Origin: a virus
Lineage: Duplodnaviria > Heunggongvirae > Uroviricota > Caudoviricetes
IMG/VR virus record: IMGVR_UViG_2531839450_000016
Span: 1-33,778 of that record
Reading direction: 5' to 3' (one strand)
DNA: 33,778 bases
The position numbers and the translations under genes are program-made. The notes under the pieces were generated by a model that saw nothing but the letters and a program-made list of their open reading frames with translations, was not told where the DNA came from and searched no databases. Below, one piece after another: positions 214-33,778 of this stretch. How positions within the stretch are numbered: position 1 is the stretch's first letter; the number at the start of each line of letters is the position of its first letter.

Positions 214-235
214 TGGCGACAAAATGGCGGCAGCG
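214..235. repeat. Prophage attachment-site core copy (left end), direct repeat of 33739-33760
   Basis: TGGCGACAAAATGGCGGCAGCG matches TGGCGACAAAGTGGCGGCAGCG at 33739-33760 (21/22); sits immediately outside the ogr stop codon, where a P2-family att site is expected. Confidence 0.6.
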
Positions 236-454
236 TCAAAGAGAGAGCGCCACCTGTCCTGATTTCATTGGATGCGGCTGAACCGGATTTGACTCTTTTG
301 GCGTTGCAATCGAACGAACAAAAGTTTCATGGGTAACAAAAGTATGGCTGCAGTTAATGTTCTGGCACTGGTTGTAACGCTCTTTGGTCAATGAAGATAC
401 CTGAAAACTGCTGCGAGTATGGGCGGCACTTCCACACAGTGGGCAAATCATCAT
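236..454 (-). CDS. ogr: Ogr-type zinc-finger late transcription activator
   Basis: ORF-track translation from internal ATG: MMICPLCGSAAH...YNQCQNINCSHTF, the Cys4 pattern of P2 Ogr / P4 Delta; about 72 aa; GGAGAA ribosome-binding site upstream of the ATGATG at 449-454. Confidence 0.85.
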   Translation of the reverse strand: MMICPLCGSAAHTRSSFQVSSLTKERYNQCQNINCSHTFVTHETFVRSIATPKESNPVQPHPMKSGQVALSL

Positions 455-544
455 TTTTCGAGTTCTCCCCATTTTTGCTAAATTCACAATAATGATACCG
501 CATTATTCCATTTTGCAAACTTAAAAGTTCTCCATTGCGAAGAA

Positions 545-1645
545 TCATTCCATTTCGAAATCATCAATCCTCACTTCAAGCTCCAGACTGGTCGTAAAAC
601 CGTTATCCGGGCTGACGGTATGCGTCAGAGTCGTAATGGTCCATTCCGCATCATCTATCGGCTGTTTAAAACCACTGACCTTCACAGGCATTTCCGTGTA
701 GAGATCTGCCCGCCCTTCTGCCAGTTGTAGCGAAAATGACGCAACGCCGCGTTGCAGGCGTTCCCACTGCATTTTCGCCGCTCGTTCGGCGTTGCTCCGG
801 TTGGCATAAGTGCGATTAAGTACCAGCACGTTTTCATCCGTACCCACCAGGTAATCGCCCTGCTTCGCTTCTGGCTCTTTCTTCTGCTTCTTAGTTCTGC
901 GCTTACGCTTCACCGTGGTGCTTTCTTTCTTCGCAGGTTCGCGGGTATGCAACCAGCTGGCAATTACGCCCGTGTAGGCTCCGCGATCTGCCAGGGTAAA
1001 TCGGTGACTGTCGCCGTCCTTGCGTGTGATAGTGATCACTGGCAGAGGTTTACCAGTGGCGCTTTTGCCCTGCCCCTGCCGGATGAATAACAGATTGCCA
1101 TTTTTCACCGACGCGATGGCACCGTACTGTCGCGCCAGCCGCATCAGAAAACTGCCGTCACTCTCATTAGTCTGGTCTATATGCTCCACGGGCTTATCCG
1201 ACAGGTCTTTACCCAGTGCCATCTTCAGCTTGTGCCGCGCGGCTATTTCCTTCACCACTTCCCCGACGGTGGTCTTATGCCACGATTTTTCACGGCGGGT
1301 ATTCAGCGTTTCCCGAAAATCAGCACTTCGCGCCCGGATAGTCAGGCGGTCCGGTGCGCCAGTGTGTTCAATCTCGTCCACCGTGAATGTCCCTTTCGGG
1401 AAAAGCGGCTGCCCCTTCCAGCCCAGCGCCAGCGTAATGACCGCACCACGGCGCGGCAGCACGATTTTTCCGTCGGCGTCGTCCAGCTCCAGATCAAGCT
1501 GGTCCGCGTCAAAGCCCCGATTGTCCGTCAACGTCAGACTCATCAGACGGTTATCCAGCACAGTAGTGATATCCCTGCCCTCAATACTGATGCTGAATGC
1601 GGGAGTTTTGTTGCCTTTGTTAAGCAGTTCAGAGCTGAAATTCAC
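545..1645 (-). CDS. D: Late control / tail protein gpD
   Basis: 366-aa ORF between ogr and U on the same strand; size and position match P2 gene D. Confidence 0.85.
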   Translation of the reverse strand: MNFSSELLNKGNKTPAFSISIEGRDITTVLDNRLMSLTLTDNRGFDADQLDLELDDADGKIVLPRRGAVITLALGWKGQPLFPKGTFTVDEIEHTGAPDRLTIRARSADFRETLNTRREKSWHKTTVGEVVKEIAARHKLKMALGKDLSDKPVEHIDQTNESDGSFLMRLARQYGAIASVKNGNLLFIRQGQGKSATGKPLPVITITRKDGDSHRFTLADRGAYTGVIASWLHTREPAKKESTTVKRKRRTKKQKKEPEAKQGDYLVGTDENVLVLNRTYANRSNAERAAKMQWERLQRGVASFSLQLAEGRADLYTEMPVKVSGFKQPIDDAEWTITTLTHTVSPDNGFTTSLELEVRIDDFEME

Positions 1646-2127
1646 GACAGCAGCCCTCCCACCGTTTTACTGATATCACTTAAGGCAGATGTTGCCGTGT
1701 CCTGCAGATTATTCAGTTGCGTACTGAGATCACCGAACATATCGGACAGGGATTCATCCACCCGTTTGAGCGACAGGGTGAACTCAATCCGGCGCGGCAT
1801 ACCGTCGCGGAAAAACTCCGTTTTAGTCTGATTCAGTCCCTCAATCACATACATGCCGTAAATCGTGCCGCTGCCTTCAATCAGGGGCCATGCTTTTCCC
1901 TGTTCTGCCATCTGCTCCAGAGCCAGCAACGACAGCCTGCCGCCCGTTACCTCCGGCATAAGAACACCAGAAAGCGTCAGCATGTCGTTGTCCGGTCCCA
2001 GAAACTGCGTTGACGGGCGTCGGTTTACCCGGCTGTTTGCCGCATGTCGCCAGCTGCGTTGATACTGCAGCTCCTGATACGGCACGGTGCGCAGCATAAA
2101 CACGTACAATCCCAGCACCATCATCAT
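1642..2127 (-). CDS. U: Tail protein gpU
   Basis: 161-aa ORF, 4-nt overlap with D, downstream of the tape measure gene; P2 synteny. Confidence 0.8.
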   Translation of the reverse strand: MMMVLGLYVFMLRTVPYQELQYQRSWRHAANSRVNRRPSTQFLGPDNDMLTLSGVLMPEVTGGRLSLLALEQMAEQGKAWPLIEGSGTIYGMYVIEGLNQTKTEFFRDGMPRRIEFTLSLKRVDESLSDMFGDLSTQLNNLQDTATSALSDISKTVGGLLS

Positions 2128-5630: not shown

Positions 5631-5684
5631 TTTGTTGTCCTGTAAATTGGGTTCTGGCGCGGTATCCCGCGCCGTTCAGATAGA

Positions 5685-6200: not shown

Positions 6201-6209
6201 GTTGTCCCC

Positions 6210-7524: not shown

Positions 7525-8097
7525 TCAGGGGGATTCATTGCTCTTATTTGCCGGAAATTTTCTATAAATTGTGGAAACACCCACATCAAAAATCAGTGCA
7601 ATACGCTGTCTTGATTCTCCGGCCTCGAGTAAACGTCCAATCTGTGCCCACTGTTCGGTGGTCAACTTAGGACGGCGTCCACCTACTCTGCCTTTAGCAC
7701 GAGCTGCAGCCAGCCCCGCCCTGGTACGTTCAACTATCAGTTCGCGTTCCATTTCAGCCAGGGCCCCCATGACATGAAAAAAGAAACGGCCCATTGGGGT
7801 GCTGGTATCAATACTGTCAGTCAGGCTTCGGAAATTCACGCCACGCTGGCGCAGCTCTTCTATCAGCGTAACGAGATGCCGCATACTGCGCCCCAACCTG
7901 TCCAGCTTCCAGACAACCAGAGTGTCACCTGCCGATAATGTCCTGAGCAGTTTTTTCAGTCCCGGTCTGTCGGACTTAGTGCCACTGATTTTGTCCTCAA
8001 AAATCCGCTCACATCCCGCGCAGTTCAGTGCATTACGTTGCAAATCGGTGTTCTGGTCATTTGTTGACACGCGTACATAGCCAATAAGCATGATCAA
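7525..8097 (-). CDS. Serine DNA invertase (Hin/Gin/Cin/Pin family)
   Basis: 190-aa ORF with the resolvase/invertase catalytic N-terminus (GYVRVSTNDQ...) and C-terminal HTH (SRQRIALIFDVGVSTIYR); lies beside a segment bounded by inverted gix/cix-like sites. Confidence 0.9.
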   Translation of the reverse strand: MIMLIGYVRVSTNDQNTDLQRNALNCAGCERIFEDKISGTKSDRPGLKKLLRTLSAGDTLVVWKLDRLGRSMRHLVTLIEELRQRGVNFRSLTDSIDTSTPMGRFFFHVMGALAEMERELIVERTRAGLAAARAKGRVGGRRPKLTTEQWAQIGRLLEAGESRQRIALIFDVGVSTIYRKFPANKSNESP

Positions 8098-8146
8098 TCC
8101 CCTGAATAAAAACCGGGGATGATGCCAGTTAGCTGTTACCTCTGCA

Positions 8147-8172
8147 TTTTCTTAAACGTTGGTTTGGGAGAA
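8147..8172. repeat. Invertase crossover site 1 (cix/gix-like 26-mer)
   Basis: TTTTCTTAAACGTTGGTTTGGGAGAA; its reverse complement shares the 14-nt TTCTCCCAAACCAA with the site at 9677-9702; fits the TTnTnnnAAACC-nn-GGTTTnnnAnAA pattern of Din-family sites. Confidence 0.7.
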
Positions 8173-8526
8173 GCGGCAAAACGAAATGTGGGTAACGAGC
8201 AAAACCAAATTCCGGATATGGCGGCGTTTGCCAGTTCACTTTCATCAACGGGTTTTCAAAAACTCCCTTCAGGTCTGATTATTCAGTGGGGTATAGTCAG
8301 TGGAGCATCAAACTATACGGTGACTTACCCGGTAACATTCCCAAATCGTTCACTTGCGCTGTTGGCTGTACCACATACAACGTCGGTGGCGGGTATATCT
8401 GCAATGGGCATAGCGAACTGTTCTGATATCAGCAAATCACAGTTCTATATAATTGTTGGCGGTATATCTCAGGGAGAAATTGTCAAATATGAAAGGTCCT
8501 GTTTTTGGGTAGCAATCGGTGTATAG
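8161..8526 (+). CDS. Silent alternative tail-fibre C-terminal cassette (would fuse to H after inversion)
   Basis: Open frame begins at the crossover site with GLGE, the same junction residues as in H (..AYLGLGELS..); shares LIIQWG with the expressed H C-terminus; has no constant N-terminal part in this orientation. Confidence 0.6.
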   Translation, partial: GLGEAAKRNVGNEQNQIPDMAAFASSLSSTGFQKLPSGLIIQWGIVSGASNYTVTYPVTFPNRSLALLAVPHTTSVAGISAMGIANCSDISKSQFYIIVGGISQGEIVKYERSCFWVAIGV

Positions 8527-8534
8527 GTATATCT

Positions 8535-8930
8535 ATGATTTATTTCTCAAAATCGACTAATGGTTTTTTCTTCGATGGTATAAACAGTGACATGCCTGCT
8601 GACATTGTTGAGATATGTACAGACTTATACAATGAATTAATTGCCGGACAGCAGGAAGGGGGTAAATTAATTACGTCAGATGAAAATGGTTTACCGGTAC
8701 TAAAATCCCCGGCGATTGATTATGTCGCACGTGCGGAAAATCAGCGAATGCAGTTACTTGCTCATGCCGATAATGTCACAGCTGACTGGCGAGTGGAATT
8801 AATGCTTGGTGATATTAGCAGTACAGATAAAGAAAAACTATCCGCCTGGATGGACTACAAAAAAGAAGTAAAAGCCGTCGACACTTCGACGGCTCCTGAG
8901 ATTAGCTGGCCTGAGTTACCGGAGGTGTAG
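8535..8930 (+). CDS. Alternative tail-fibre assembly chaperone
   Basis: ORF starting MIYFSKSTNGFFFDG..., ending ...VDTSTAPEISWPELPEV, the typical C-terminus of tail-fibre assembly proteins; follows the silent cassette. Confidence 0.7.
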   Translation: MIYFSKSTNGFFFDGINSDMPADIVEICTDLYNELIAGQQEGGKLITSDENGLPVLKSPAIDYVARAENQRMQLLAHADNVTADWRVELMLGDISSTDKEKLSAWMDYKKEVKAVDTSTAPEISWPELPEV

Positions 8931-9339
8931 GCCATTCAATATCTGGAGCACTGGAGGTATCCACCAGTTCCAGTGCGTCCAGGTAATCCAGCCACAAATT
9001 ATATAGTGCCAGTTCCTCACCTTTCAGACGACCAATAGCTGCTTTGCCAGGCCATTGCTTACTGTTCATGTATTCGTTGGCCTGATTAAGCAATAATTGC
9101 CTTTCTGTTTCTGCCTGTTGAATAAGTTCTTCATGTGATGGTGGAGGTATTAGTGCCCATGTGGGTAATCCATTTTTTCCTGCAACACGAATTTTGTCAT
9201 CTGGGGGCGTATTGATTGCAAATTCATTATAAACATCATCACTGACAGCCAGAGCATCATCTGGCCATGAATTTGCATTAATGTAATCATCCTTAAGCGC
9301 AGGATTCACAAAAATGTTTAAAGATGGACTATAAAACAT
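8902..9339 (-). CDS. Tail-fibre assembly chaperone (expressed orientation)
   Basis: 145-aa ORF immediately downstream of H, ending ...LVDTSSAPDIEWPTPPV. Confidence 0.8.
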   Translation of the reverse strand: MFYSPSLNIFVNPALKDDYINANSWPDDALAVSDDVYNEFAINTPPDDKIRVAGKNGLPTWALIPPPSHEELIQQAETERQLLLNQANEYMNSKQWPGKAAIGRLKGEELALYNLWLDYLDALELVDTSSAPDIEWPTPPVTQAS

Positions 9340-9340
9340 A

Positions 9341-10738
9341 TTACACCCCTATAGCGATATAACGACCTAATACAGCGTTTGCAGCAGTCGCTATGCTTGA
9401 AAAACCGCGGAACTGATTTGATGTAATTGCAGAAGCCGACAGGATTCCTGCGCCTGAAGGTGTATGCCCCACATGACTAACTATCATTCCATAACATGCT
9501 GACGGAAAGGCAAAAGGAAAATCATTAAGATATCCGGCATCTTCACCACCAGACCCACCAAATCTCGCCTGCCCCCACTGAATAATCAGTGTTCTCCGGG
9601 AACCTGAAATAATTAACGGAATCGTTACATACCCATTCAGACCAATGACACCCGATGCAGTGCCAGCCAGAGATAATTCTCCCAAACCAAGGTATGCGAG
9701 AAGACCAGCTACATCCTTTCCACTCAAATTAGTCAGCGTATTGTCCAGCGGTTGTTTACCTGCTAGCGCATTAAGCATTGTCGTGGCAAAGTTCGGGTCA
9801 TTCCCCAGCGCCGCCGCCAGTTCGTTCAATGTATCCAGTGCCGCAGGTGCAGAACCCACCATTCCTGCAATCGCCGATTTCACAAAAGCCGTAGTGGCAA
9901 TCTGTGTATTGTTGACCGACTGTGCCGCAGTAGGTGCTGTTGGCGTTCCGGTAAGTGCCGGACTCGACAGCGGCGCTTTCAGTGCCAGCGCATTATTAAT
10001 AGTGGTACTGAATTTCGGGTCATTGTTAATGGCTGCGGCAATTTCTTTCAGCGTGTCCAGCGTGGCTGGCGCACCATTAATCAGGGTCGTCAGTGCCGCC
10101 TGAACAAACGCGGTCGTAGCAAGTTGCGTGGTATTATTCCCCACCGCTGGCGTTGGCGCTTTGGGGGTTCCGGTAAATGTCGGGCTGGCTTTTGGCGCGT
10201 ACTGTGAATGTGGGTCCTGTGCAGCAAGATGTTTTGCCATCAGGTCAACCACGTACACCTTCAGCTCCAGTACCTTGTCATCCACATACTTGCGGGTTGC
10301 CAGCACTACGGCAGGGTCGATTTTCAGGGTGATATTGTCCGTGCTGCTGGTAATCAGCACCATGCGCACGGTCTGGGTACGCCCGCTGCCTTCAGCCAGT
10401 TGCGGCTTATAGCTTTCCGGGCAGTTGCCCACGGCAATCAATGCCCCGGACTCATCAAACAGACCCACTTCACGTATCCACCAACCGCCCTCGTTTTCAG
10501 GGATCACCTGTTCAGCAATAATCTGGCTGCTGTTCTGCGGGTCGATATAGAGCATATTCAGCGCAGCCCGGCGTTTCTCATTTACTAATGCTGTCTGCTT
10601 TGCGTCCGGCGTTGGCAATGTTCCGCCGCCATCGCCGACCGCCATATGGGTAATTTTTAAAGGCACACCGAGCGCGGCGGCGCTGGCAAGTTTCGCCGCG
10701 CCAATATCCGTTAGCAGGGTATAAAATTTTGTGCTCAT
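9341..10738 (-). CDS. H: Tail fibre protein gpH (constant part 9703-10738, variable C-terminus 9341-9676 inside the invertible segment)
   Basis: 465-aa ORF between I and the assembly chaperone with repeated Ala/Thr-rich fibre motifs (e.g. TQLATTAFV and TQIATTAFV); crossover site embedded in the coding sequence. Confidence 0.85.
   Translation of the reverse strand: MSTKFYTLLTDIGAAKLASAAALGVPLKITHMAVGDGGGTLPTPDAKQTALVNEKRRAALNMLYIDPQNSSQIIAEQVIPENEGGWWIREVGLFDESGALIAVGNCPESYKPQLAEGSGRTQTVRMVLITSSTDNITLKIDPAVVLATRKYVDDKVLELKVYVVDLMAKHLAAQDPHSQYAPKASPTFTGTPKAPTPAVGNNTTQLATTAFVQAALTTLINGAPATLDTLKEIAAAINNDPKFSTTINNALALKAPLSSPALTGTPTAPTAAQSVNNTQIATTAFVKSAIAGMVGSAPAALDTLNELAAALGNDPNFATTMLNALAGKQPLDNTLTNLSGKDVAGLLAYLGLGELSLAGTASGVIGLNGYVTIPLIISGSRRTLIIQWGQARFGGSGGEDAGYLNDFPFAFPSACYGMIVSHVGHTPSGAGILSASAITSNQFRGFSSIATAANAVLGRYIAIGV
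9677..9702. repeat. Invertase crossover site 2 (cix/gix-like 26-mer) inside H
   Basis: TTCTCCCAAACCAAGGTATGCGAGAA, an inverted partner of 8147-8172. Confidence 0.7.
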
Positions 10739-12587: not shown

Positions 12588-13162
12588 ACCGGTCCTCCGG
12601 TTGTGTCGCCGCCTTTCAGGACGCCAGTATGCTGATGCGCATCAACCACGATCCCCCTGGAACTCATTGCACCGCCGCCCTGGGTAACGCCACCATTGAT
12701 CACCACTTCGCTGTTAATACGCGTGCGGTCAGCCTCCAGCACAAACTCACTGGTTTTCATGGTGATGTTGTCAGCGGCCTCAATGACCATTGATTTGATG
12801 CCCCTGACATACCAGCGCCCGGTGGCGGGTTCGTATTCAAACCAGCCGCCGTCAGGATGTTCTGTCACGCAGGCGTCTGCCGACGTCGACGGTGGCGCGA
12901 ACTGATTCGAATAGACAGCGGGCAGCGCAAAGGCGGTTTCCAGATTTCCGCCCAGACTCAGCAGCACCACCTGCTCACCTTCCGATGGTCGCCACCATGT
13001 CCGGGCATTCCCGGCACGCAGCGTCAGCCAGCTGATCCAGTTGGTTTCAAGCTCGCCCGTTTTCACCCGGCAAAGCCAGTTCTCCCGATCCACTTCGGTG
13101 ACTACACCAGTGCGGATCAGGTTGGTGATAAGGCGCATGATTTCGGTTAGTTGTGCGTTCAT
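12584..13162 (-). CDS. V: Baseplate spike protein gpV
   Basis: 192-aa ORF, first gene downstream of the late-promoter dyad; P2 synteny. Confidence 0.85.
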   Translation of the reverse strand: MNAQLTEIMRLITNLIRTGVVTEVDRENWLCRVKTGELETNWISWLTLRAGNARTWWRPSEGEQVVLLSLGGNLETAFALPAVYSNQFAPPSTSADACVTEHPDGGWFEYEPATGRWYVRGIKSMVIEAADNITMKTSEFVLEADRTRINSEVVINGGVTQGGGAMSSRGIVVDAHQHTGVLKGGDTTGGPV

Positions 13163-13205
13163 CTACTAAGGATGATGAATTATCGACTTCTACGGTAGAT
13201 CAGGT

Positions 13206-13231
13206 ACATTGTGCTATAAATGGCACAATGT
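13206..13231. promoter_or_regulatory. Candidate Ogr-binding dyad of the late promoter for the V-W-J-I-H operon
   Basis: Perfect palindrome ACATTGTGC-N8-GCACAATGT containing TGT-N12-ACA, about 56 bp upstream of the V start codon. Confidence 0.5.
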
Positions 13232-13254
13232 ATCTTCCAAGGATAAAATTTAAG

Positions 13255-22276: not shown

Positions 22277-22280
22277 AAAA

Positions 22281-22300: not shown

Positions 22301-22305
22301 GTATA

Positions 22306-23385: not shown

Positions 23386-23398
23386 GTTTTTCTCACGC

Positions 23399-24628
23399 TT
23401 AGTTTTTTATATCAAGAAAAGCTGGAACTAATCCAAATTCGCCACGTAAATATTTGGCAGACACTTTAGCATCTTTCCTTACAGAAAATACCGTAGCATT
23501 AGTTATTATCGACGCTTTAGATGAATCCTTGACTATAATATTAAGCTCATCTCTTCTAAACACATCATCTAATAAAGGAATATTATGTGTAGACATAATA
23601 AACTGCACACCATTTTTACGGCAGGTTTTATCAAATATTTTTTTGATTAGTGCACTTGCCAAAGAATAGTGAATAGATGAATCTATTTCATCCACATAAA
23701 GTGTAAAATCATATTCACTAGCCCAAATCAATATTGCTAAAAATGTTAAAACATTTAGTGTGCCTTGGGAAAAAAATTCATCCCTACGGTCAGGGCCTAT
23801 TCTAGTAAAATCACCATCATCATTTTTTATGAGATAAACAAATTTATACTCATTATCTTCGCCAAATCTTACAAATTCAACTTTATCTATATGCAGCGGC
23901 GACTGAATAACCATTTCATTATAGGTATTTAAAATTCTTTGACCACTCTCATTTAATTTTTCATTTCCTTCCTCACCTGATAACTGGCGCTTAAGTTGTC
24001 CTTCAACAAATTTAAGACTTGGATTTTTGAATTTTTCAGAGTAATAAGGCAATTGTTTTAATGCCCAGCGTTGGGTTTCAACAAGAGCATCAATTTCTAA
24101 AGATTTTGCAAAAGTTACAACAGCTCCACTTTCTCTTAAGACAGGATTAATCAACGACTCGTATTTTTTTAAGTCGGGCTTTTTGAAAACCAACCCATTT
24201 TCATTGCGAATAAAAATACATTGTTCCCTTGCATTTTTTCTTATCGGTCTAATGTATAAATACTCATCTACAATAACTTCATTTAAAACTGACACACCAT
24301 AACGGACGAAGTTTTTTTGCTCTTCATCAATCAGTATCGCTTCATAGGAAGTAGGTTTGTTACGACATTCCTTATTTAGAAGGAAAGGCATATGCAATTT
24401 GTGTAATGTGTCACTATGAATTGAATTTGCAAATTCAGTAATAGCATTTATTAATTGTGTTTTACCAACACCATTTCCGCCTATTAATGCGGCAAATCTG
24501 TTTACTCTTAAACCATTCGCTAATGTCACGATATGTTCAGGATGCTCATCCCCAATTGAGGAAGCAAAACTAAGAACCTGTCTTTCGCGAAAGCTCTTGT
24601 AATTTTCTAAACTGAATGCAACTAGCAT
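23399..24628 (-). CDS. ABC-type (AAA_15/AAA_21-like) ATPase, first gene of an accessory cassette
   Basis: 409-aa ORF; N-terminal MLVAFSLENYKSF followed by Walker A GGNGVGKT at about residue 50; C-terminal LYVDEIDSSIH (Walker B/D-loop) and STHN (H-loop-like); GAGGA ribosome-binding site 6 nt before the ATG; AT-rich. Confidence 0.7.
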   Translation of the reverse strand: MLVAFSLENYKSFRERQVLSFASSIGDEHPEHIVTLANGLRVNRFAALIGGNGVGKTQLINAITEFANSIHSDTLHKLHMPFLLNKECRNKPTSYEAILIDEEQKNFVRYGVSVLNEVIVDEYLYIRPIRKNAREQCIFIRNENGLVFKKPDLKKYESLINPVLRESGAVVTFAKSLEIDALVETQRWALKQLPYYSEKFKNPSLKFVEGQLKRQLSGEEGNEKLNESGQRILNTYNEMVIQSPLHIDKVEFVRFGEDNEYKFVYLIKNDDGDFTRIGPDRRDEFFSQGTLNVLTFLAILIWASEYDFTLYVDEIDSSIHYSLASALIKKIFDKTCRKNGVQFIMSTHNIPLLDDVFRRDELNIIVKDSSKASIITNATVFSVRKDAKVSAKYLRGEFGLVPAFLDIKN

Positions 24629-24748: not shown

Positions 24749-24767
24749 CTCGTATCCCCGCCACGCC
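24749..24767 (-). other. Candidate cos site (19-nt cohesive end)
   Basis: Minus-strand GGCGTGGCGGGGATACGAG followed by CGCGCGC resembles the P2 cohesive end as I recall it (GGCGAGGCGGGGAAAGCAC then TGCGCGC); located in the Q-to-A interval where cos is expected. Confidence 0.5.
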
Positions 24768-24940: not shown

Positions 24941-25618
24941 CTAGAACGTGACAGCCTTGTCAAAGCCAGAAATAATTGTATAGGAAATAGACGAGTTATC
25001 AGCCTTGTTCACTTTGAACTTGGCACCTTTGTAAGCGATAACATCACTTCCCTTAGAATCTACAGAAAAATCTGTTGTAAACGCTGCACGAGCCATATCG
25101 TTTGCAAACTCACGATAGGTAAACTTCATTACACCGTCTGCATTTCCATTGTATTCGATAGTCTTAACCAATGAGTTACTCACTCGACACAGCCCATCAG
25201 GAACACGCTTGATAGAAATTTCTGAGGCTGTATAAGAAGTGCCGTTTGGTGGTGATATCTCATTTTTTGCAGCATCGTAACTTACATAATCAACATAGGT
25301 GCCGATTTGTCCATAGATATTTTTTAGCGCAACAGCTTGAGGATTATGATGATTGCGGTAAATTCCATTCCCTTCGCTGCAATATGTACCTGCAGAGATA
25401 GAAGATAGCGCACCATTAGCCGCACCAAGCTCTAGTACGTCCGTTTTATATCCAGTAGCAGATGTTATGATGGGGTCGCCCATGTAGGCTGTAGCACTTT
25501 GCCCAATAGCAGGCTTCACCACTTCAATAGCTGTGATATTTCGGTTAGAAGCATGAGGCACGCAACCAGTTAGGATTACAGCAAGAGATATAGGTAACGC
25601 AATATGGTTAATTTTCAT
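24941..25618 (-). CDS. Lipoprotein of unknown function (accessory gene next to cos)
   Basis: Likely start at the internal Met MKINHIALPISLAVILTGC (signal peptide with lipobox LTGC); AT-rich; occupies the position of tin/old in P2. Confidence 0.6.
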   Translation of the reverse strand: MKINHIALPISLAVILTGCVPHASNRNITAIEVVKPAIGQSATAYMGDPIITSATGYKTDVLELGAANGALSSISAGTYCSEGNGIYRNHHNPQAVALKNIYGQIGTYVDYVSYDAAKNEISPPNGTSYTASEISIKRVPDGLCRVSNSLVKTIEYNGNADGVMKFTYREFANDMARAAFTTDFSVDSKGSDVIAYKGAKFKVNKADNSSISYTIISGFDKAVTF

Positions 25619-25731
25619 TTTTAGCCTATTATTCTTTTCTTGACAAAAAACGAGGCGATATCTGATTGACATCACCTCTCACTCATATGTAACCCTTTTT
25701 AAGTATTAAAAACAAGCATCTATTGACAAAA

Positions 25732-25965
25732 TCAATGCAGCCAGCTGTCGTCTTCCCACACCTTCTGCATAATTTTCATCACTTGTTTTCTTTCTTCATC
25801 CAGTTGCAGTCCGGTCAGTTCCACACCGTTAGAGCTACCTTTACGGATACGAATTACCGTTTTGGGATATAGGGGGCGCAGATTGCGGTAAAGCTCGGAT
25901 TCAAGGGCGTCCAGGGTAGACTGGCTAATCTTCTGCTCTTTATCGATCATTATTTCAATGCGCAT
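25732..25965 (-). CDS. DinI-family protein
   Basis: From the internal Met: MRIEIMIDKEQKISQSTLDALESELYRNL...KIMQKVWEDDSWLH, which resembles E. coli DinI (MRIEVTIAK...ALAGEL...ETWESADDW); strong GAGGTGA ribosome-binding site. Confidence 0.8.
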   Translation of the reverse strand: MRIEIMIDKEQKISQSTLDALESELYRNLRPLYPKTVIRIRKGSSNGVELTGLQLDEERKQVMKIMQKVWEDDSWLH

Positions 25966-25975
25966 AAAAGTCACC

Positions 25976-26164
25976 TCAACTGATGACATCCATTGAGCGG
26001 TTGTATTCGTGGGTTCTGATTTTTGCCATGAGTTCATCTGTCAGTTCAGAAACCCACTGCAGGGCCAGCCCCTTCTCTTCATCACTACACTCACTAGCCG
26101 CTACAAGCTTAAGAAAAAAATCAATGCGCTGGAGCTTCAAAGACTCCAAAAAATAGTCCTGCAT
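25976..26164 (-). CDS. Small hypothetical protein (62 aa) upstream of the DinI-like gene
   Basis: ORF from MQDYFLESLK... with an AGGAGG ribosome-binding site; immediately downstream of a LexA-box-like sequence. Confidence 0.5.
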   Translation of the reverse strand: MQDYFLESLKLQRIDFFLKLVAASECSDEEKGLALQWVSELTDELMAKIRTHEYNRSMDVIS

Positions 26165-26207
26165 TTTTCCTCCTATGACACCACAAGCAATACTGTATAC
26201 ATAACCA

Positions 26208-26223
26208 CTGTTTATATTTACAG
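26208..26223. promoter_or_regulatory. LexA (SOS) box
   Basis: CTGT-ttatattt-ACAG (CTGT-N8-ACAG, AT-rich spacer) inside cactgtttatatttacagta, about 45 bp upstream of the small ORF / DinI-like pair. Confidence 0.55.
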
Positions 26224-26317
26224 TATATAATAACCTTACTGATGTAAAACGTTTTTTTACGTTCATCAGCATGATATGCCTGGTATTATTAAGAGCACGA
26301 ATTGTTAACCCGCGTAA

Positions 26318-28732
26318 TTAATACAGGTTCCGCCACTTATCATCTTCCTGCAAACGCTGGTTCCGATAGAAGATACGCAGGCCTGCTCCTGACGGAATAC
26401 TGCCTCCGCGAAGGAGTAAATCGACCTCTTTCTCGCTGCCATCAAATCCTCTGGACTTCAGCTCATACACGAGCTGCAGTCGCTGATGGTCTGTAATTCG
26501 CTGTTTGTAGTCTTTACGCCGTTTCGGTTTCACCAGGCGTAACCTTGCTGCCAGTTCCCGGCACTCTTTTTTGCTCATACTGTGCAGGTAATCGTGCAAC
26601 TCCTTGTCATCCATGCGGGTAATATCCGTTCTGGTGTCCCCATCAGCTGATTTATCTTTCTCCTGTTGGTTCAAATTTTCAGCAAGGGGACAGTTATTGC
26701 CACGAGTCCAAGGGGCGCAAGCGCCCTGGTCGGCTACCGCCTCCTGAACGTCAACGGCCTTACGAACCATTTTCCACTTCACTGCATGAGTGCAGATCTT
26801 GCCCTCTGAAATGGGTGACCAGATGCCATAAATACGAATACCGTGATCGCCATAGGCGGTCGGCTCTTCGTTGATTTCATAAGCGGTTCTGATGAGGTGA
26901 TATTTACGGGGAACCAGTACGCCGCCCTGCTTCATGATGTAGGAGGCAAAACAACCAGCATCAGCAGCAGCCAGGATGGCATCAAGGCGCGGGTTATCCA
27001 GTACCGGCGCACCTGCTTTTTTGTCCCCCTGTTGCCTTGCCGCCTGACCAGCCAGCAATCGCAGTTCACGGTAAGCCTGACGCCCCGGAATGCCAAAGAA
27101 GCGGAATTGCTGAACACGATGCAGAGACGCCCAGGCATTAACGTATTCAGCGTTATCACGCAGGGATTTACCCGTTTCCTTGCTGATCTCACCAGCCAGA
27201 CCACGCCCGTCAATGTTCTTACTGATGTATTTCGCGATGTAGCTTGTTGGCGTACCTTTGCGCGGGTTTATCAGCTCAGACTTAAAGCGTGGTCCCGTGT
27301 TATTACCCAGCTCCTCGCGGTCTTCACGAATGGCAAACTTACGCAACAAAGCAGTAATGGCTCGGCGATCTTTTTTGCGCATAAAACACAACAGGTGCCA
27401 GTGAACTGTACCGTCATGATGCGGCTCAGCCACCCGCACGCCATACCAGCGCAATCCGGCTTTGTGCATCGCTTTACGAAATGCAGCAAACATGCCGACC
27501 AGATAATCACTGCTTTGTCTTACCGTCGCGTTTGTCCAGGTCGGGTTTGGTCTGCCGTTATTTAGCGTGGAATGGAAACGTGACGGACAGGTGATGGTGT
27601 AGAAAACGGCGCAGTCACCGCGCATTTCCGCGATAAGCTCCAGACCTTTAACACAGGCCATCATCTCATTGCGGCGATGCGCAGGGTTGCTGCTGCTGGC
27701 GTTTACCACATCCTCCATGTCCAGCGTGTCGCCGTCTTCGTTCACCAGTTCATGAGAACGGAAAAACTCCAGCGACTTACGGCGCTGCTCACGTTTATGC
27801 AACACGGCTTCATAGCTGACATAGGGAGATACTTTTTTGCTGACAAGGCAGACAGCACGCAACTGCTCTTCCCGCCATTCGCAACGCATCTTCCATAATT
27901 TCCGATACCACCAGTCGGCGCATAACATACGCGCCAGCGAACCCGGAATGAGTTCATAAGGCACGGGTTTACGGCGGTTTCTTTTCCGACGGAGTTGCTC
28001 AAACGCAGGCGGGATAACATCCAGACGCAGGGTTTCCGCTGCCACCTTTTCCCATGTCTTGCGGATTTCTTCTGGCGTAACATCATCGGTGGCATACAAA
28101 TCGCCACAAGCTGTATCAAGGCACATGCTCATATGCGCAGCTACCAAGGTGGACAGGCGTTTCACCTGATCCTGACTCATTTCAGGCAGGATCAGCAGGC
28201 CGTCCAGCCCTTCATGGCTTGCCATAAAGCGAAAAGAAGTGGATAGCTGACTGTCGCGTACATGCTCCAGTCGTTCCAAGCATGGCTTAATCGTCTCACG
28301 CAAATAGCGGGAATAAGCCTTTGGCCTGCCCAGGCTGCTGAAGTATTTAATACGTTGCATCAGCGGCTTGCTGATATGGGAAGGCTGGGCGTTGACGTCC
28401 GCCAGAATGGCCATGTCTGGATTAAAACGCTGCTGCTCATGCGCCAGCTTTGCCCGGCTAATTAGCTTATCCTGCTCCATTTCGCGTTGGACAGGATCAC
28501 GGGATTCATTAAAGAAATAACGCTCCCAGACCTGATCACTCAGTGCCTCGCGGCGTAGTTGTTCCTGCTCGTTATCGGCAGCGTACAGAGTGATCAGGTT
28601 TGAAAGCGCAGAAACCGGCGCAACTTCCGCCGGGTCCAGATAAGGGTTAATGGCCTTTTTCGGGCTGTTCCATGAGAATGCTGCGGCGACCTCGTTAAAG
28701 CCGCTGCAGTTGTTCATATCAGCATGGCTCAT
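26318..28732 (-). CDS. A: Replication initiation endonuclease gpA (rolling-circle initiator)
   Basis: Large ORF with a His-rich motif ([14 protein letters not shown]) consistent with a rolling-circle Rep metal site; probable start ATG at 28730-28732, overlapping the Dam stop (ATGA). Confidence 0.9.
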
Positions 28733-29586
28733 GCACGCACTCCGTACACGACGGAACAATCCACGCCACGCGAAGGATCAAATCCTACCCAGCAGCGCGG
28801 CCCGGAAACAGCGATGATTTCTGTTGCTGATTTACTCTCACCAGCTGCTACGCCGATGCTGCGTTTTACCTTGATATAGTGGTGAGTAAAATTGCGATAC
28901 AGCGAACGGATCAGGGATGTGTCACTGTTAGAAACAATGACCGGATGTCCTTCTGATGACCGATGTTCAAGAACGGATGCCAGGTGATACTGGTCATCTT
29001 CAGTAAAGCCGTCAGCGTGATAGCCGGAAAACGTACCGTCATAAGGCGGATCGCAATACACCACATCCCCCGCCTTCAACATCGCCAGCGTTTCATCAAA
29101 GCTGGCGCAGATAAACGTTGCTCGCTGGGCTTTTTCTGCAAAAGCGCGAATTTCTTTTTCAGGGAAATACGGATTTTTATAATTACCGTAGGGAATGTTG
29201 AAATGCCCGCTCTTGTTATAGCGACATAACCCACGGTAACCGTGACGATTGAGATACAGGAAATATACCGCTTTCATGAAATCAGTAATTTCAGTTGAGT
29301 AATTAAACTCCTGCCTTATGTTGTAATAAGCCACCTCCCTGTTTGCGATCTCAAATAAAACTTTGGCGCGAGATATAAACAATTCACAATCAGCGGCAAC
29401 CTTTTTATAGAGGTTGATTAAATCAGGATTAATATCCGCAACCAGATAGCAGGGATAATCCGTCTCCATCATCACAGCACAGGAACCCGCGAAAGGTTCA
29501 ACTAGTCGCGGACCAGCAGGAAGATGTTTTTTCAGTTCGGACATTACGGCGGTTTTATTTCCCGCCCATTTCAGGATGGTGCTCAT
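28729..29586 (-). CDS. dam: DNA adenine methyltransferase (Dam family)
   Basis: From the internal Met: [11 protein letters not shown]... (the N-terminal motif typical of Dam) and DPPY catalytic motif (VYCDPPYDG); start ATG overlaps the stop of the TraR-like frame (ATGA). Confidence 0.85.
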
Positions 29587-29808
29587 ACAGCACCTCCGTT
29601 GTAATGTTTGCCTTTCAGCTCTGCGATTTCCTGACAGGTAATGCAAAGCTGCACCCGGAATGGCACGGCGGCGTGCTGGCGGAATTGGCGCTTCACACTC
29701 AACGCAAAGCACGCGGGACACGCCCGGCGTTTTGGCACGGGCAGCACGGATATGGCGCTGGCGTTCTTCTTCAACGCGCTGCTGTACGAGATCCATTGCA
29801 TCAGCCAT
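29583..29808 (-). CDS. TraR/DksA-like C4 zinc-finger protein, apparently frameshifted in this sequence
   Basis: The N-terminal half in one frame (..LCVECEAPIPPARRRAIPG) and the C-terminal half in the +1 frame (..QLCITCQEIAELKGKHY..) together match the TraR pattern C-x2-C-x17-C-x2-C; the frames switch near 29650-29660 at a CCC/GG run. Confidence 0.5.
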
Positions 29809-30041
29809 TAGTGGATCTCCTGCGCTTCGTTCTGGATTGCTTCAGCAGTCACACGCAGCAGTTCTGCCGCTTCCACGTGGTTTAGCTGACGGGATGAGAT
29901 ATGACACGCCAGGCTATCAAGGCGAGCTGCCATTGCTTCAGCCCTTGCCCGGCGTTCTTCCAGACGAGCCTCTGTCAGTAAAATATTAAGCCCTGCGTCA
30001 TCCGGTCCGGTTTTAGTCGTGAGGGTTTCAATATTACGCAT
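29808..30041 (-). CDS. Hypothetical protein (77 aa from the ATG at 30039-30041)
   Basis: ORF with a CAGGAGA ribosome-binding site; stop overlaps the TraR-like start (TAATG). Confidence 0.5.
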   Translation of the reverse strand: MRNIETLTTKTGPDDAGLNILLTEARLEERRARAEAMAARLDSLACHISSRQLNHVEAAELLRVTAEAIQNEAQEIH

Positions 30042-30108
30042 AATCAATTCTCCTGAATTTAGATAAAGGGATGCCCGGCGGGTTTACGCCATTAATTTCA
30101 TTAGTTGG

Positions 30109-30450
30109 TTAATTCGGCATGGTTAGCCGTCTGGGAAATAAGCTCACCACTGCACGAAAATGATTCATTGCTTTAATCAGCTCCCGCTTTTCGTCAGTGG
30201 TCAGCTCATTAATGCTGATGCTATGACGTTCAGCTGGAATTTTTGCCATAAAGAATATGGCAGCCAGTGCCCGTTTATTTTGTTCATTATTGATATCCCG
30301 TGGATCACGCATATCTTTAATAAACCGCTCAAGCTCTGACTCAATATTCAGGCCAAAAACTTTCGCCCTTAGCTCCGCAATGTGATTAAGTCCATTCAGG
30401 CGTTCACCGGGGCTTAATGGAACAGTCGCCGCAGCGCCATTAATTGCCAT
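30109..30450 (-). CDS. Hypothetical protein (113 aa)
   Basis: ORF in the early operon between B and A; no recognisable motif. Confidence 0.5.
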   Translation of the reverse strand: MAINGAAATVPLSPGERLNGLNHIAELRAKVFGLNIESELERFIKDMRDPRDINNEQNKRALAAIFFMAKIPAERHSISINELTTDEKRELIKAMNHFRAVVSLFPRRLTMPN

Positions 30451-30472
30451 AATTCATATCCCCAAAACGCAA

Positions 30473-30697
30473 CTATCGTTGTTTGTTATTACGGTAACGT
30501 TCAAGAGGAGATACATTTTTTCGTATCGTCTCTTTAACCTGCTCTCCCCGTAAAAACGTCCCATCTTTTAGCGTGAAAAAGTAACTGCCATCGCCCGACA
30601 ACGACGGATAACAACAGAGCAAATCATCTTCAGGTACTGAATAACTCTCCCCTCTGTAACGAAACTGATAAACCACTTCACTTTCCGCTGCATACAT
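30473..30697 (-). CDS. Hypothetical protein (74 aa)
   Basis: ORF with a GGAGA ribosome-binding site; overlaps the 3' part of the ORF at 30568-30864 in a different frame. Confidence 0.4.
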   Translation of the reverse strand: MYAAESEVVYQFRYRGESYSVPEDDLLCCYPSLSGDGSYFFTLKDGTFLRGEQVKETIRKNVSPLERYRNNKQR

Positions 30698-30864
30698 TTT
30701 GACTTTCTCCGTTTCCTCGTGGTCAATTCAGACAGCAATTCATCTTGTGAATGACATGGATGCCAGCGTTTTCCATCCTCACCCATGATCCAGCCGTGAC
30801 CGTAGTGCATTGCCGGGCTTTGCTTTACCAGCAGCGATGCAAATGATGGTTCTTTCGTCAGCAT
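30568..30864 (-). CDS. Hypothetical protein immediately downstream of B (reading frame uncertain toward the 3' end)
   Basis: ATG at 30862-30864, 8 nt after the B stop, with a GAGG ribosome-binding site; the C-terminal third is Cys/Arg-rich and overlaps the 74-aa ORF, so the true end is unclear. Confidence 0.35.
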   Translation of the reverse strand: MLTKEPSFASLLVKQSPAMHYGHGWIMGEDGKRWHPCHSQDELLSELTTRKRRKSKCMQRKVKWFISFVTEGRVIQYLKMICSVVIRRCRAMAVTFSR

Positions 30865-30871
30865 AAGTACC

Positions 30872-31387
30872 TCACAGCAAACCAAATGAAGCACCGAGGC
30901 CAGTCACGGTATCAACTGCACTCGCCATCGCAGGGTTAGCCTGTAAACGGGCCTGCAATGAAACAGCAGCCAACGCCATCAGTCGTGTTACAGAGTTAAT
31001 GCTGCTGATAGCATCACGACGGCCTGCACTGGTTTTTACATCGCCAGATGCCGCACCTGCAGCAACACGCCCGATCTCTGCGGTTGCACTCATGACGTAA
31101 TGTGGCAGTTTCTCTTTTGCCACCTCATTAATCGGTACACATGGCAGGCAGTGAATCTGAGCCAGAAAACCATCTACTAGCGTTGAATCTTCAGTCAGAT
31201 CGGTAAGCAACCAGATTTCTGGTGCGGTTAATAAATGAGGTTGAGCTGGGTTCAGCTTGTTCCGCAGAATCTGCACATTCATGCCTGCACGTTCTGCCAG
31301 TTGCACCAGGTTGTGGCGCAGTGCGAATGCACGACAGGCTTCATCAAAATGTGGATGTTTGGAAACTTGGTAATCAAACATAGTCAA
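30872..31387 (-). CDS. B: Replication protein gpB
   Basis: 171-aa ORF downstream of the apl/cox-like gene in the early operon; P2/186 synteny. Confidence 0.75.
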
Positions 31388-31413
31388 TGCCTCTGATGTA
31401 TTTCAGAATCGAA

Positions 31414-31635
31414 CTAATTAAGGTTTAGATTGCATTCTGAAAGCGCATCAACGGTCATGGCTGCTATGTTGATCATCACTTTTTCGCGTTTTTTATCTTT
31501 GCGCAAACGGTGACGGATAAGGCGTCCATCAGCCAACATGTCATTGATAGTATCGATGGACAGCCCTGTCAGCTCGCTATAGCGTTCAATAGTCACATGA
31601 GGCGTGGTAAGAGTGATTGAAATGTTAGGTCTCAT
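31414..31635 (-). CDS. Apl/Cox-like excisionase and early-promoter regulator (small HTH protein)
   Basis: 73-aa first gene of the early operon, divergent from cI; HTH-like segment YSELTGLSIDTINDMLADGRL. Confidence 0.6.
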   Translation of the reverse strand: MRPNISITLTTPHVTIERYSELTGLSIDTINDMLADGRLIRHRLRKDKKREKVMINIAAMTVDALSECNLNLN

Positions 31636-31760
31636 GATGCAACATTCCTCGTTTAATGATGATTAATCAGGACGAATACGGATCGTTTGTATTTTGTGAA
31701 CACCATAAACATACGATCGCACAGTGAAATCGTCAAGACAAAAGTTCACTTGGAGTGACC

Positions 31761-32330
31761 ATGAATTTGGAGAAAGGCGGACGAGGCGCTATAGAGCGCA
31801 TGGTAGAAGCTTATGGATTCAAGACTCGACAGGCGTTGTGCGATCATTTAGGAATCTCTAAAAGTACACTCGCCACACGCTACATGCGTGACTCATTCCC
31901 AGCAGAATGGGTAATCCAGTGCGCCCTTGAAACAGGCACTTCGCTTAATTGGCTCACAACCGGGCATGGTTCAAAGCAAACTTCAGGTAATACAAATACT
32001 ATGGAAGTTGCTAAATATGTATTATCTGATGGGGCTTTGTGTGAAGACGGTTTTTATATTTTCGATAGAGAATTTCTACCGTCGGCATTCAAGAATCTTT
32101 TTGTAATCACAGATAATAATTCTGAATTTATTTGTGATAAGGAATTTGATGATATACGTGATGGTAAATGGGTAATAAGTATTGATGGCGAAATAACGAT
32201 CCGTGACATTACTCGTTTACCCGGTGGAAGAATCTTCGTCGAGGGTGGAAACAGAGCCTTCGAATGTAAGATAGAAGACATTGAAATAATTGGTAAAATT
32301 ATAAGTTTAACAGTCAAGTATGTTAAATAG
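31761..32330 (+). CDS. cI: 186-type CI immunity repressor
   Basis: About 189 aa from the ATG at 31761 (GGAG ribosome-binding site); N-terminal ...EAYGF...HLGISKSTLATRY...CALETG..L.WL.TG resembles phage 186 CI as I recall it; divergent from the apl-like gene. Confidence 0.75.
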   Translation: MNLEKGGRGAIERMVEAYGFKTRQALCDHLGISKSTLATRYMRDSFPAEWVIQCALETGTSLNWLTTGHGSKQTSGNTNTMEVAKYVLSDGALCEDGFYIFDREFLPSAFKNLFVITDNNSEFICDKEFDDIRDGKWVISIDGEITIRDITRLPGGRIFVEGGNRAFECKIEDIEIIGKIISLTVKYVK

Positions 32331-32345
32331 TACCGGGAGGAAACT

Positions 32346-32537
32346 ATGCTTGGTAAGGTATTTTTTGTGGTTTTATCATGTTCTTTGTTATTAAACCCAC
32401 TAACTACCTATGCTAGAAATTATCCCTGCTCAGGGAAAAAGGGAGGTGTTTCTCACTGTACCTCAGATGGCAAATTCGTTTGCAATGATGGAACTATTAG
32501 TAAATCCAAAAAAATCTGTACTAAAAACTCACGATAA
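32346..32537 (+). CDS. Small secreted Cys-rich basic peptide (accessory gene between cI and int)
   Basis: 63-aa ORF with a strong GGGAGG ribosome-binding site; signal peptide [23 protein letters not shown]; mature part of about 40 aa has four Cys and many Lys; AT-rich. Confidence 0.55.
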
Positions 32538-32725
32538 CTTTTGCTTTTATATCTGCGTCTAAAATAAAAATGAGCCGCAGGTTAACCGCAAAAGTTACAT
32601 GCTCACATAGCAAAAAGAATAGCCAACTTCATTATGGCTTCAGTGAGATGTATGGTCGTAGGATTTCATACATTGACACTGGTTATACATACAGTAAAAA
32701 TGCTCTCTACTGGAGGGCATTTTTT

Positions 32726-33778
32726 ATGGCAGTACGAAAACTCACCACAGGGAAATGGCTTTGCGAATGTTACCCCGCCGGACGAAGTGGGCGTCGTGTG
32801 CGTAAACAATTCGCCACCAAAGGCGAAGCTCTGGCTTTTGAGCGTCACACTATGGAAGAAACCGAATCAAAGCCATGGCTGGGCGAATCAGTGGATCGTC
32901 GAACCCTGAAAGACGTGGTTGAGCTATGGTTCAAACTACATGGTAAATCTCTGACTGCTGGGCAGCATGTCTATGACAAATTGCTGCTGATGGTTGGCGC
33001 TCTGGGCAATCCTCTTGCAACCGATCTCACCTCTAAAATGTTTGCCCACTATCGAGATAAACGCCTGACAGGCGAGATCTACTTCAGCGAGAAATGGAAG
33101 AAAGGAGCAAGCCCGGTCACCATTAACCTGGAGCAAAGCTATCTAAGTAGTGTTTTTAGCGAACTATCCCGTCTGGGCGAATGGTCGTATCCGAACCCAC
33201 TGGAGAACATGCGAAAATTCACCATCGCAGAAAAAGAGATGGCATGGCTTACCCATGAGCAGATTGTTGAATTACTGGCTGATTGCAAACGTCAGGACCC
33301 AATTCTAGCACTGGTAGTTAAGATATGCTTAAGCACAGGCGCACGCTGGCGAGAAGCCGTAAATCTTACTCGTTCACAGGTGACCAAATACCGAATTACC
33401 TTTGTAAGAACGAAGGGGAAGAAAAACAGAAGTATCCCTATCAGTAAAGAGCTTTACGAAGAGATCATGGCGCTTGATGGATTCAATTTCTTCACAGACT
33501 GCTATTTTCAATTTTTATCCGTGATGGAAAAAACGTCTATCGTGCTCCCTCGCGGTCAACTCACACACGTTCTGCGCCATACGTTTGCGGCGCACTTCAT
33601 GATGTCGGGTGGAAACATTCTGGCCTTACAAAAAATTCTCGGACACCACGATATAAAAATGACTATGCGTTACGCACATCTGGCACCGGATCATCTGGAA
33701 ACGGCGCTCCGTTTCAATCCTCTGGCAACGCTGCCAAGTGGCGACAAAGTGGCGGCAGCGGTTGGCATTACCCCGTAA
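32726..33778 (+). CDS. int: Tyrosine integrase (P2/186 family)
   Basis: From the internal Met MAVRKLTTGKW...; C-terminal catalytic region ...THVLRHTFAAHFMMSGGNILALQKILGHHDIKMTMRYAHLAP (Arg-His-x-x-Arg ... Tyr); the 3' end contains the att core repeat. Confidence 0.9.
   Translation: MAVRKLTTGKWLCECYPAGRSGRRVRKQFATKGEALAFERHTMEETESKPWLGESVDRRTLKDVVELWFKLHGKSLTAGQHVYDKLLLMVGALGNPLATDLTSKMFAHYRDKRLTGEIYFSEKWKKGASPVTINLEQSYLSSVFSELSRLGEWSYPNPLENMRKFTIAEKEMAWLTHEQIVELLADCKRQDPILALVVKICLSTGARWREAVNLTRSQVTKYRITFVRTKGKKNRSIPISKELYEEIMALDGFNFFTDCYFQFLSVMEKTSIVLPRGQLTHVLRHTFAAHFMMSGGNILALQKILGHHDIKMTMRYAHLAPDHLETALRFNPLATLPSGDKVAAAVGITP
33739..33760. repeat. Prophage attachment-site core copy (right end), direct repeat of 214-235
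   Basis: TGGCGACAAAGTGGCGGCAGCG inside the last codons of int. Confidence 0.6.

Follow-up and report, generated by a model that had tools for sequence, protein, structure and literature searches.

Terminal 22-bp repeats of a rybB-integrated P2/186-like prophage of Escherichia coli as predicted integrase arm sites around a separate 26-bp attachment core

The DNA analysed here is the IMG/VR virus record IMGVR_UViG_2531839450_000016 (Caudoviricetes; positions 1–33,778, hereafter the window), which carries a prophage bracketed by a 22-bp direct repeat. An earlier note, made from the sequence alone, had taken this 22-mer for the attachment (att) core. Our comparisons place the core elsewhere, in a 26-mer at positions 145–170, and the 22-mer was refuted as the core by its absence from unoccupied sites and by the co-occurrence of both copies in attP. 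The element is most probably an apparently intact, 186-like member of the P2 family (Peduoviridae), ~33.7 kb long and integrated in E. coli at the 3′ end of the small RNA (sRNA) gene rybB, between rybB and rcdA, with the 22-mers serving as arm-type sites of the integrase (Int); we put the probability of this reading at about 0.9. The features on which it draws are as follows.

Positions 1–144, plus strand: host DNA with the promoter region of rybB and its 5′ portion, showing 100% identity to E. coli chromosomes with or without the prophage.
Positions 80–158, plus strand: intact sRNA gene rybB (Rfam RF00110 at 105.3 bits, where the gathering score is 40, model positions 1–79 of 79, not truncated; rybB in the K-12 annotation).
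Positions 145–170, plus strand: attL core ATGGGTTTTTTGTTGCCTGAAATTTA, a 26-mer that is repeated after the int-side arm in lysogen NZ_CP053079.1.
Positions 171–213, unstranded: 43-bp phage spacer from the core to the ogr-side arm, absent in unoccupied sites and contiguous with the int-side arm in Klebsiella phage KP12 and IMG/VR contig L081.
Positions 214–235, minus strand: predicted ogr-side arm (left repeat), two arm-type units in 11-bp phase, TGCCGCCATTT at 222–232 and TGTCGCCAtcg at 211–221.
Positions 32726–33778, plus strand: int, encoding a 186-type tyrosine integrase of 350 codons, with its stop as the last codon of the window.
Positions 33736–33760, minus strand: predicted int-side arm (right repeat) within the last int codons, two arm-type units in 11-bp phase, TGCCGCCACTT at 33747–33757 and TGTCGCCACTT at 33736–33746.

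The repeat itself was confirmed at exactly the coordinates reported earlier. The left copy, TGGCGACAAAATGGCGGCAGCG (214–235, plus strand), and the right copy, TGGCGACAAAGTGGCGGCAGCG (33739–33760, plus strand), are identical at 21 of 22 positions and differ solely by A/G at position 11; no match of this kind arose in any of 100 dinucleotide-preserving shuffles. The left copy adjoins the stop codon of ogr (236–454, minus strand). The right copy corresponds to codons 338–345 of the 350-codon int, which bears out the earlier observation that int reads into one copy, and a P2-type gene set occupies the whole interval between the two.

The att core was found by comparing K-12, the window and lysogen NZ_CP053079.1, in which the initial 700 bp and the terminal 100 bp compared were identical to the window. 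The 26-mer at 145–170 is repeated in this lysogen 74 bp past the int stop codon and just before the stop codon of rcdA, a gene that is intact there ~105 bp past the int stop. The 26-mer takes in the 3′ half of the stem of the RybB terminator, its T-run and another 12 bp, and it covers the last 14 nt of rybB. The hairpin previously noted at 113–155 is real and was identified as the terminator of rybB. In K-12, only 19 bp lie between the rybB 3′ end and the stop codon of the convergent rcdA. The attR core of the window's own prophage is expected ~74 bp beyond the window end, judging from relatives with ends identical to those of the window. The assignment of the first ~213 bp to the host held for the left end (1–144), whereas positions 171–213 proved to be phage DNA. 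A tRNA or tmRNA gene as the integration target was rejected, the window containing neither.

Unoccupied sites agreed with this assignment. The predicted attB (window 1–170 plus the rcdA flank) was 100% identical over 380 nt in UTI89, S88, APEC O1, ATCC 11775 and many others, and it was covered to at least 80% in 4,227 of 5,426 complete E. coli genomes; the rybB–ogr junction seen in the window occurred in ~1,110 of the same 5,426. Unoccupied sites run contiguously from rybB through the 26-mer to rcdA without the 22-mer, and those of the B2 type contain the 26-mer once. In K-12, no 22-mer was found within 3 kb of the locus, even at 3 mismatches. The earlier note had proposed searching prophage-free strains for the repeat at this locus, and they have none there. 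Likewise, when attB was built with the 22-mer as the core (window 1–235 joined to 33761–33778), the matches listed all ended at 235 and all came from lysogens, and none of them spanned the join.

The phage-form sequences showed the complementary arrangement. The predicted attP has the order int 3′ end, 22-mer, 92 bp, 26-mer core, 43 bp, 22-mer and ogr. In Klebsiella phage KP12 (OM835953.1; 100% coverage, 97.7% identity), this order is unbroken and lies within the record, and the same contiguous layout was found, independently of KP12, in contig L081. Both sequences hold the two 22-mers 161 bp apart around the 26-bp core. Since the two copies flank the core on one molecule in phage-form DNA, both are phage DNA. 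In the record of Klebsiella phage 4LV2017 (Peduoviridae, from K. pneumoniae), attL and attR are annotated on ATGGGTTTTTTGTTGCCTG at the 3′ end of the Klebsiella rybB, and both 22-mers lie inside the phage. The 26-mer therefore has a single copy in each of attB and attP and a copy at either junction, flanked outward by host DNA and inward by phage DNA, with attR read in close relatives, as an att core should, whereas the 22-mer has no copy at attB and two copies, not one, in attP.

Both ends of the window sit on gene boundaries: position 1 is the first base past the ybjL stop codon in the K-12 and lysogen annotations, and the final position is the last base of the int stop codon. Most IMG/VR calls of this prophage likewise stop exactly at the int stop. 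The attR core is missing because the window was trimmed there, ~74 bp short of it; its absence is a trimming artefact and not a sign of decay. With attR removed in this way, the arm repeat probably came to look like a terminal repeat. The earlier proposal of a complete prophage stands in so far as the element is an apparently complete P2-family prophage, but its bounds of 214–33760 are wrong, the true cores being at 145–170 and beyond the window end. The prophage proper extends roughly from 159–171 to ~100 bp past the window end, a length of ~33.7 kb.

Natural variation at the host site allowed the position of the crossover to be narrowed. The K-12-type attB departs from the phage core in the right half (ATGGGTTTTTTGTT-ATCTAAAACTTA). 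ΦECO2, described by Nilsson and Haggård-Ljungquist (2011), is the prophage of ATCC 8739; its attL has the phage allele, with 100% identity to window 1–235, and past the first 14 bp its attR has the host allele ATCTAAAATTTA (ATGGGTTTTTTGTT-ATCTAAAATTTA). Hybrid junctions with the same pattern were found in two IMG/VR loci (L053 and L054), and the alignment of int-side junctions diverges after ...CATAAATGG(G). As these hybrid junctions place the crossover within the shared 14 bp, we infer that strand exchange takes place within 145–158 (ATGGGTTTTTTGTT), the last 14 nt of rybB. L067 and L015, two further loci situated at other sites, have the same int and int-side arm, but from around position 2630 the sequence diverges directly after ATGG into unrelated DNA with a similar T-rich motif, which suggests that the exchange occurs towards the left of this segment; these junctions are possibly secondary sites or sites in other hosts. 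The attB itself is polymorphic in E. coli: sites of the B2 type (UTI89, S88 and others) match the phage core over all 26 bp, and those of the K-12 type (L001, 1466–1491) and the ATCC 8739 type (L005, 1489–1514) share only its first 14 bp contiguously. The terminator hairpin of the phage int, CCCGTTTA-ca-TAAATGGG followed by a T-run, has its 3′ half and T-run in common with the RybB terminator. On our reading of the sequence, this shared 3′ half would let both rybB and int retain a terminator after recombination.

If the 22-mers are not the core, their internal structure points to integrase arm sites. Each 22-mer consists of two units at 11-bp spacing, TGGCGACA-AAR-TGGCGGCA-GCG, which read TGCCGCCAYTT and TGTCGCCA... 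on the opposite strand. The 186-type arm consensus is tgccGCCActt, present as two or more direct repeats to either side of the core (PMC3448106), and the curated 186 record gives YAYCGCCAYTY, with 3 + 2 sites labelled 'predicted'. Against tgccGCCActt, the two int-side units match at 11/11 and 10/11 positions and the unit at 222–232 at 10/11; the latter has 1 mismatch to YAYCGCCAYTY. Three of the four units thus lie within 0–1 mismatch of the consensus. The layout agrees with that annotated for P2 and 186, with 2 + 2 units at 11-bp spacing, 43 bp (ogr side) and 92 bp (int side) from the core. No further match to the arm consensus was found in the 1.1-kb attP region; a degenerate third int-side unit, TTGGCA at 33762–33767, is possible. 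Over the whole window, the motif TGYCGCCAYTT occurred 5 times against 0.17 expected, and 3 of these 5 occurrences fell in the 22-mers. Of 80 IMG/VR loci that bear int, 78 have the int-side 22-mer at this position, regardless of the DNA that follows.

The integrase is of the matching type. It is 56% identical to 186 Int and 35% identical to P2 Int, and the catalytic residues R207, K230, H281, R284, H307 and Y316 are conserved. Three positions of the N-terminal domain have been proposed to discriminate the type of arm site (PMC3448106). At these positions the protein has the 186-type residues W11/E14/Y16, where P2 has Y/D/R, and its N-terminal domain aligns without gaps, so that the arm-binding domain is of the type to which the repeat units correspond.

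The attP of 186 is closely comparable. It has units with a CGCCA core in direct orientation and ~11-bp phasing (int side TGGCGATAAAGTGGCGGTAGAAATGGCG, also read as TGGCGATAAAGTGGCGGTAGA...; B/ogr side TGGCGATAGAATGGCGGTGG), and the order B/ogr, arm, (integration host factor, IHF), core, accessory sites, arm and int is common to both phages, as are a lysogenic-operon terminator adjoining the core and identical residues at the proposed arm-discriminating positions of Int. The two phages differ in the target, the 186 core lying in the 3′ end of a tRNA-Ile gene (ileY) and that of the window phage in the rybB 3′ end; in the number of units, 3 + 2 in 186 against 2 + 2 clear units here; and in the int-side arm, which lies beyond orf69 in 186 and inside the int frame in the window phage. 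P2 offers a parallel for this last arrangement: its P′ arm consists of two 11-bp-phased repeats within the last int codons (24470–24496; the coding sequence ends at 24462), and the P arm is found on the side of ogr. The positional rule by which the earlier note had recognised att sites, just outside ogr and in the last codons of int, accordingly corresponds to Int arm sites and not to the core in the P2 record. From the P arm to the P′ arm, P2 has the IHF site, the core and the Cox boxes in this order, and the arm–core distances are 35 and 86 bp, compared with 43 and 92 bp in the window phage. P2, too, integrates at the 3′ end of an sRNA gene, in its case cyaR. P2 departs from the window phage in its arm units (tgTGGaCa type), its Int N-terminus and the low Int identity, and in having a C/Cox switch where the window phage has CI/Apl/CII. 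In both P2 and 186, IHF footprints lie at the position equivalent to the spacer 171–213, and here a weak match to the IHF consensus with one mismatch was read by eye at 181–193 (AATCATGATGTTA).

A side observation concerns the interval between the int stop and the core, which contains two direct repeats, CTAACTTATTGTTTT (also given as AACTTATTGTTTT), 20 bp apart (L002, a related lysogen, 37413–37447). The CTAACTTATTGTTTT repeats sit where 186 has IHF/Apl sites and P2 has Cox boxes. A role for AACTTATTGTTTT as Apl/Cox sites was unsupported: the motif is absent from the cI–apl switch region, and the protein at the Apl position is only weakly like 186 Apl.

Taken together, these features would be explained by the following sequence of events. 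The last 14 nt of rybB are duplicated in the attP core ATGGGTTTTTTGTTGCCTGAAATTTA, so that integration leaves rybB intact. The tyrosine integrase would be heterobivalent, its N-terminal domain binding the 22-mer arms and thereby bridging arm and core in the recombination complex. The attP would read ...TGGCGACAAAGTGGCGGCAGCGGTTGGCATTACCCCGTAA-(74 bp)-ATGGGTTTTTTGTTGCCTGAAATTTA-AGCTGTTTAAAATC...TGGCGACAAAATGGCGGCAGCG-TCAAAG..., and the unoccupied site would read rybB-ATGGGTTTTTTGTT...-TCTACTACC (rcdA stop), without the 22-mer. After integration, one arm lies in attL (214–235) and the other in attR (33736–33760). It is because the arms are split between attL and attR in this way that the 22-mers seem to bracket the prophage.

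The view that the 22-mer is an att core duplicated by integration, with the prophage at 214–33760 and host DNA at 1–213, draws on the significance of the repeat and on its position at either end of a P2-like gene set, and on positions 1–144 being truly of host origin. Nevertheless, we consider it next to impossible: unoccupied sites lack the 22-mer, an attB with the 22-mer as its core was unmatched end to end among the matches listed, attP forms carry both copies on one molecule, positions 171–213 and the 92 bp past the right copy are phage DNA, and the att sites of 4LV2017 are annotated at the rybB 3′ end. A different question is whether the 22-mers, although flanking attP, serve another protein, such as an excisionase of the Apl/Cox type, Ogr or CI, or are a duplication without function, whose right copy is retained only through the coding constraint on int. 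Apl/Cox and IHF also bind repeated attP sites in 186 and P2, the arm-site role is a prediction from sequence, and the right copy lies in coding sequence. However, the 22-mers fit the Int arm consensus specifically, the annotated Apl/Cox/IHF regions lie between arm and core, and at its N-terminus Int carries the matching, 186-type residues. In KP12, moreover, the non-coding left 22-mer has substitutions only in the spacer and tail, and both TGGCGRCA octamers are kept. In another IMG/VR locus (L083, 2630–2760), possibly a tandem or a different element, the same int and int-side arm are followed after the core by an otherwise diverged arm in which TGGCGACA is retained exactly 43 nt from the core. 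A role for another protein, or none at all, is accordingly very improbable. Several points nonetheless weigh against the arm-site interpretation. The unit at 211–221 is off consensus in its last 3 nt and keeps only the CGCCA core (8/11 by eye), and two isolated matches to the consensus, at 6282 and 20304, lie in coding DNA. The 80 IMG/VR loci with relatives of Int all have at least 98% identity and mostly end at the int stop, so that for phylogenetic footprinting only the few extending past int are informative. Coding constraint acts on the right copy too, which means that its conservation is not diagnostic by itself, and the set for the arm comparison is shallow, with most relatives at least 97% identical. 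Int is predicted to bind the 22-mers, and the arm sites of the 186 record are themselves labelled 'predicted'. Finally, the genome of the window is absent from the complete E. coli assemblies, the best of which covers 85% of the window at 95.6% identity, and the attR of the window is thus deduced from relatives.

It is also rather unlikely, although less so, that the element is a defective remnant. The attR core lies outside the window, cos is only predicted, a fused TraR–Dam open reading frame (ORF) suggests at least one indel, and the lysA-like gene of L002 is absent here. In contrast, the essential P2-type ORFs checked are all open, and nearly all have the lengths given in the annotations of relatives; int is intact with complete catalytic residues, the cos-like site is conserved and attL is present. 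The loss of attR is explained by the gene-boundary cut common to most IMG/VR calls, and the 186 record likewise has no annotated lysA-type gene. Two further roles might coexist with the arm-site interpretation: the int-side arm repeats could also act in cis as an Int autoregulatory element, in the DNA or at the 3′ end of the mRNA of int, and the prophage could alter RybB/RcdA expression in lysogens via the rebuilt RybB terminator and the int terminator downstream of rcdA. Nothing in the data points to either, and we regard such added roles as very improbable.

These results imply that a significant direct repeat around a prophage need not be the att core. Where a phage integrase has both arm-type and core-type binding sites, the arm sites are direct repeats, one ending up in attL and one in attR, and when a prophage call has been trimmed at gene boundaries and the real attR lost, they can be the sole remaining terminal repeat. 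Taking the 22-mer as the boundary here would shift the left junction by ~45–70 bp and the right junction by ~100 bp, and it would predict the wrong attB and the wrong junctions for the polymerase chain reaction. Biologically, the element is one more common and catalogued rybB-integrating P2/186-like prophage with variable defence cargo, and the main value of the analysis lies in the correction.

Both the element and its attachment site (ΦECO1 type) have already been published and are ordinary. P2-like prophages at rybB have been described as Rybb*W, Rybb*B and Rybb*Cr in E. coli W, B and Crooks (PMC3032704), as Kpn38RybB in Klebsiella (PMC4048246), and as ΦECO1/2/3 and ΦSEN1 (PMC3448106), and the rybB locus is listed as the Felsduovirus-type defence hotspot #29 (PMC10121019). 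The window phage shares with these prophages the site, int, the attP arms, the gene order and a variable defence cargo adjoining the portal gene, and its int and head/lysis genes have ~96–97% nucleotide identity to 4LV2017, int itself having at least 97%. It differs from them in the cargo, an AbiLi-like ATPase and a SIR2-like protein here and retrons, RES/KAP NTPase and others elsewhere, and in minor features of the tail-fibre and lysis modules.

The gene content between the arms is that of a P2-type phage with a 186-like control region, arranged as follows.

Positions 236–454, minus strand: ogr, late-gene activator with an Ogr/Delta zinc finger (Pfam PF04606 Ogr_Delta, 6.7e-22; Prokaryotic Genome Annotation Pipeline (PGAP) annotation of the identical gene in L002).
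Positions 545–22276, both strands: P2-type late region with D, U, T, E/E′, FII, FI, an invertase module, G, H, I, J, W, V, S, R, lysC/lysB, K, Y, X, L, M, N and O on the minus strand and P and Q on the plus strand, assigned by ORF lengths against L002.
Positions 24749–24767, minus strand: candidate cohesive-end (cos) site GGCGTGGCGGGGATACGAG, its first 13 nt identical to the annotated 186 cos GGCGTGGCGGGGAAAGCAT.
Positions 25732–32537, unstranded: early/regulatory region with a DinI-like gene, replication gene A, a Dam methylase gene, small early ORFs, cII, a gene at the apl/cox position, cI and a small ORF (Pfam and L002 annotation).
Positions 31414–31635, minus strand: gene at the apl/cox position, with weak similarity to 186 Apl (E = 1e-4).
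Positions 31755–32330, plus strand: 186-type cI (Pfam Phage_CI_repr and Phage_CI_C).

The ORF lengths in the late region nearly all equalled those of the PGAP genes of lysogen L002, H and G being off by 9 and 3 nt, respectively, and the head and lysis genes had ~96% nucleotide identity to 4LV2017. Searches for cos with a P2 19-mer and the exact 186 19-mer gave no match at up to 3 mismatches, and the candidate at 24749–24767 was found with a shortened pattern; 18 of its 19 positions are kept at the equivalent place in 4LV2017.

The late region includes an invertible tail-fibre module (7525–9702). It comprises a serine invertase gene (7525–8097, minus strand; Pfam Resolvase, 2e-53, and HTH_7) and a 26-bp Mu/Gin-like pair of inverted crossover sites (8147–8172 and 9677–9702, 81% complementary), together with an alternative fibre C-terminus (8119–8526, Gp53-like_C) and a tail-fibre assembly gene (8505–8930) that are oriented opposite to the expressed H/G. 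In the 186 record, only a 'Mu-like inversion crossover site' is annotated in the fibre gene. Between the portal gene Q and cos lies a two-gene accessory cassette (22306–24628, minus strand), which encodes an AbiLi-like ABC/AAA_21 ATPase (23399–24628; PADLOC AbiLi, 2e-51) and a SIR2-like protein (22306–23385; Pfam SIR2_2, 1.3e-8). The cassette is a candidate anti-phage system in a known cargo hotspot of the P2 family; relatives carry retrons, RES/KAP NTPase, SEFIR, DUF262 and others at the same place. On the other side of cos, an ORF of 244 amino acids (24941–25675, minus strand) has a lipoprotein-like N-terminus (…LTGC…) and no Pfam or PADLOC match.

In the early region, where the Dam methylase matches Pfam MethyltransfD12, an ORF of 359 amino acids (28729–29808, minus strand) combines a TraR/DksA zinc finger (residues 33–54) with a Dam-type methylase (residues 81–318). 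A related lysogen has TraR/DksA and Dam as two overlapping genes of 228 and 858 nt, and an indel likely fused the two frames. In the late region, a plus-strand ORF (13153–13914) placed between V and S runs counter to the tail genes. Its sole match here, to DUF3112, is sub-threshold; its counterpart in the related lysogen is a DUF6216 protein, and the ORF looks like a moron.

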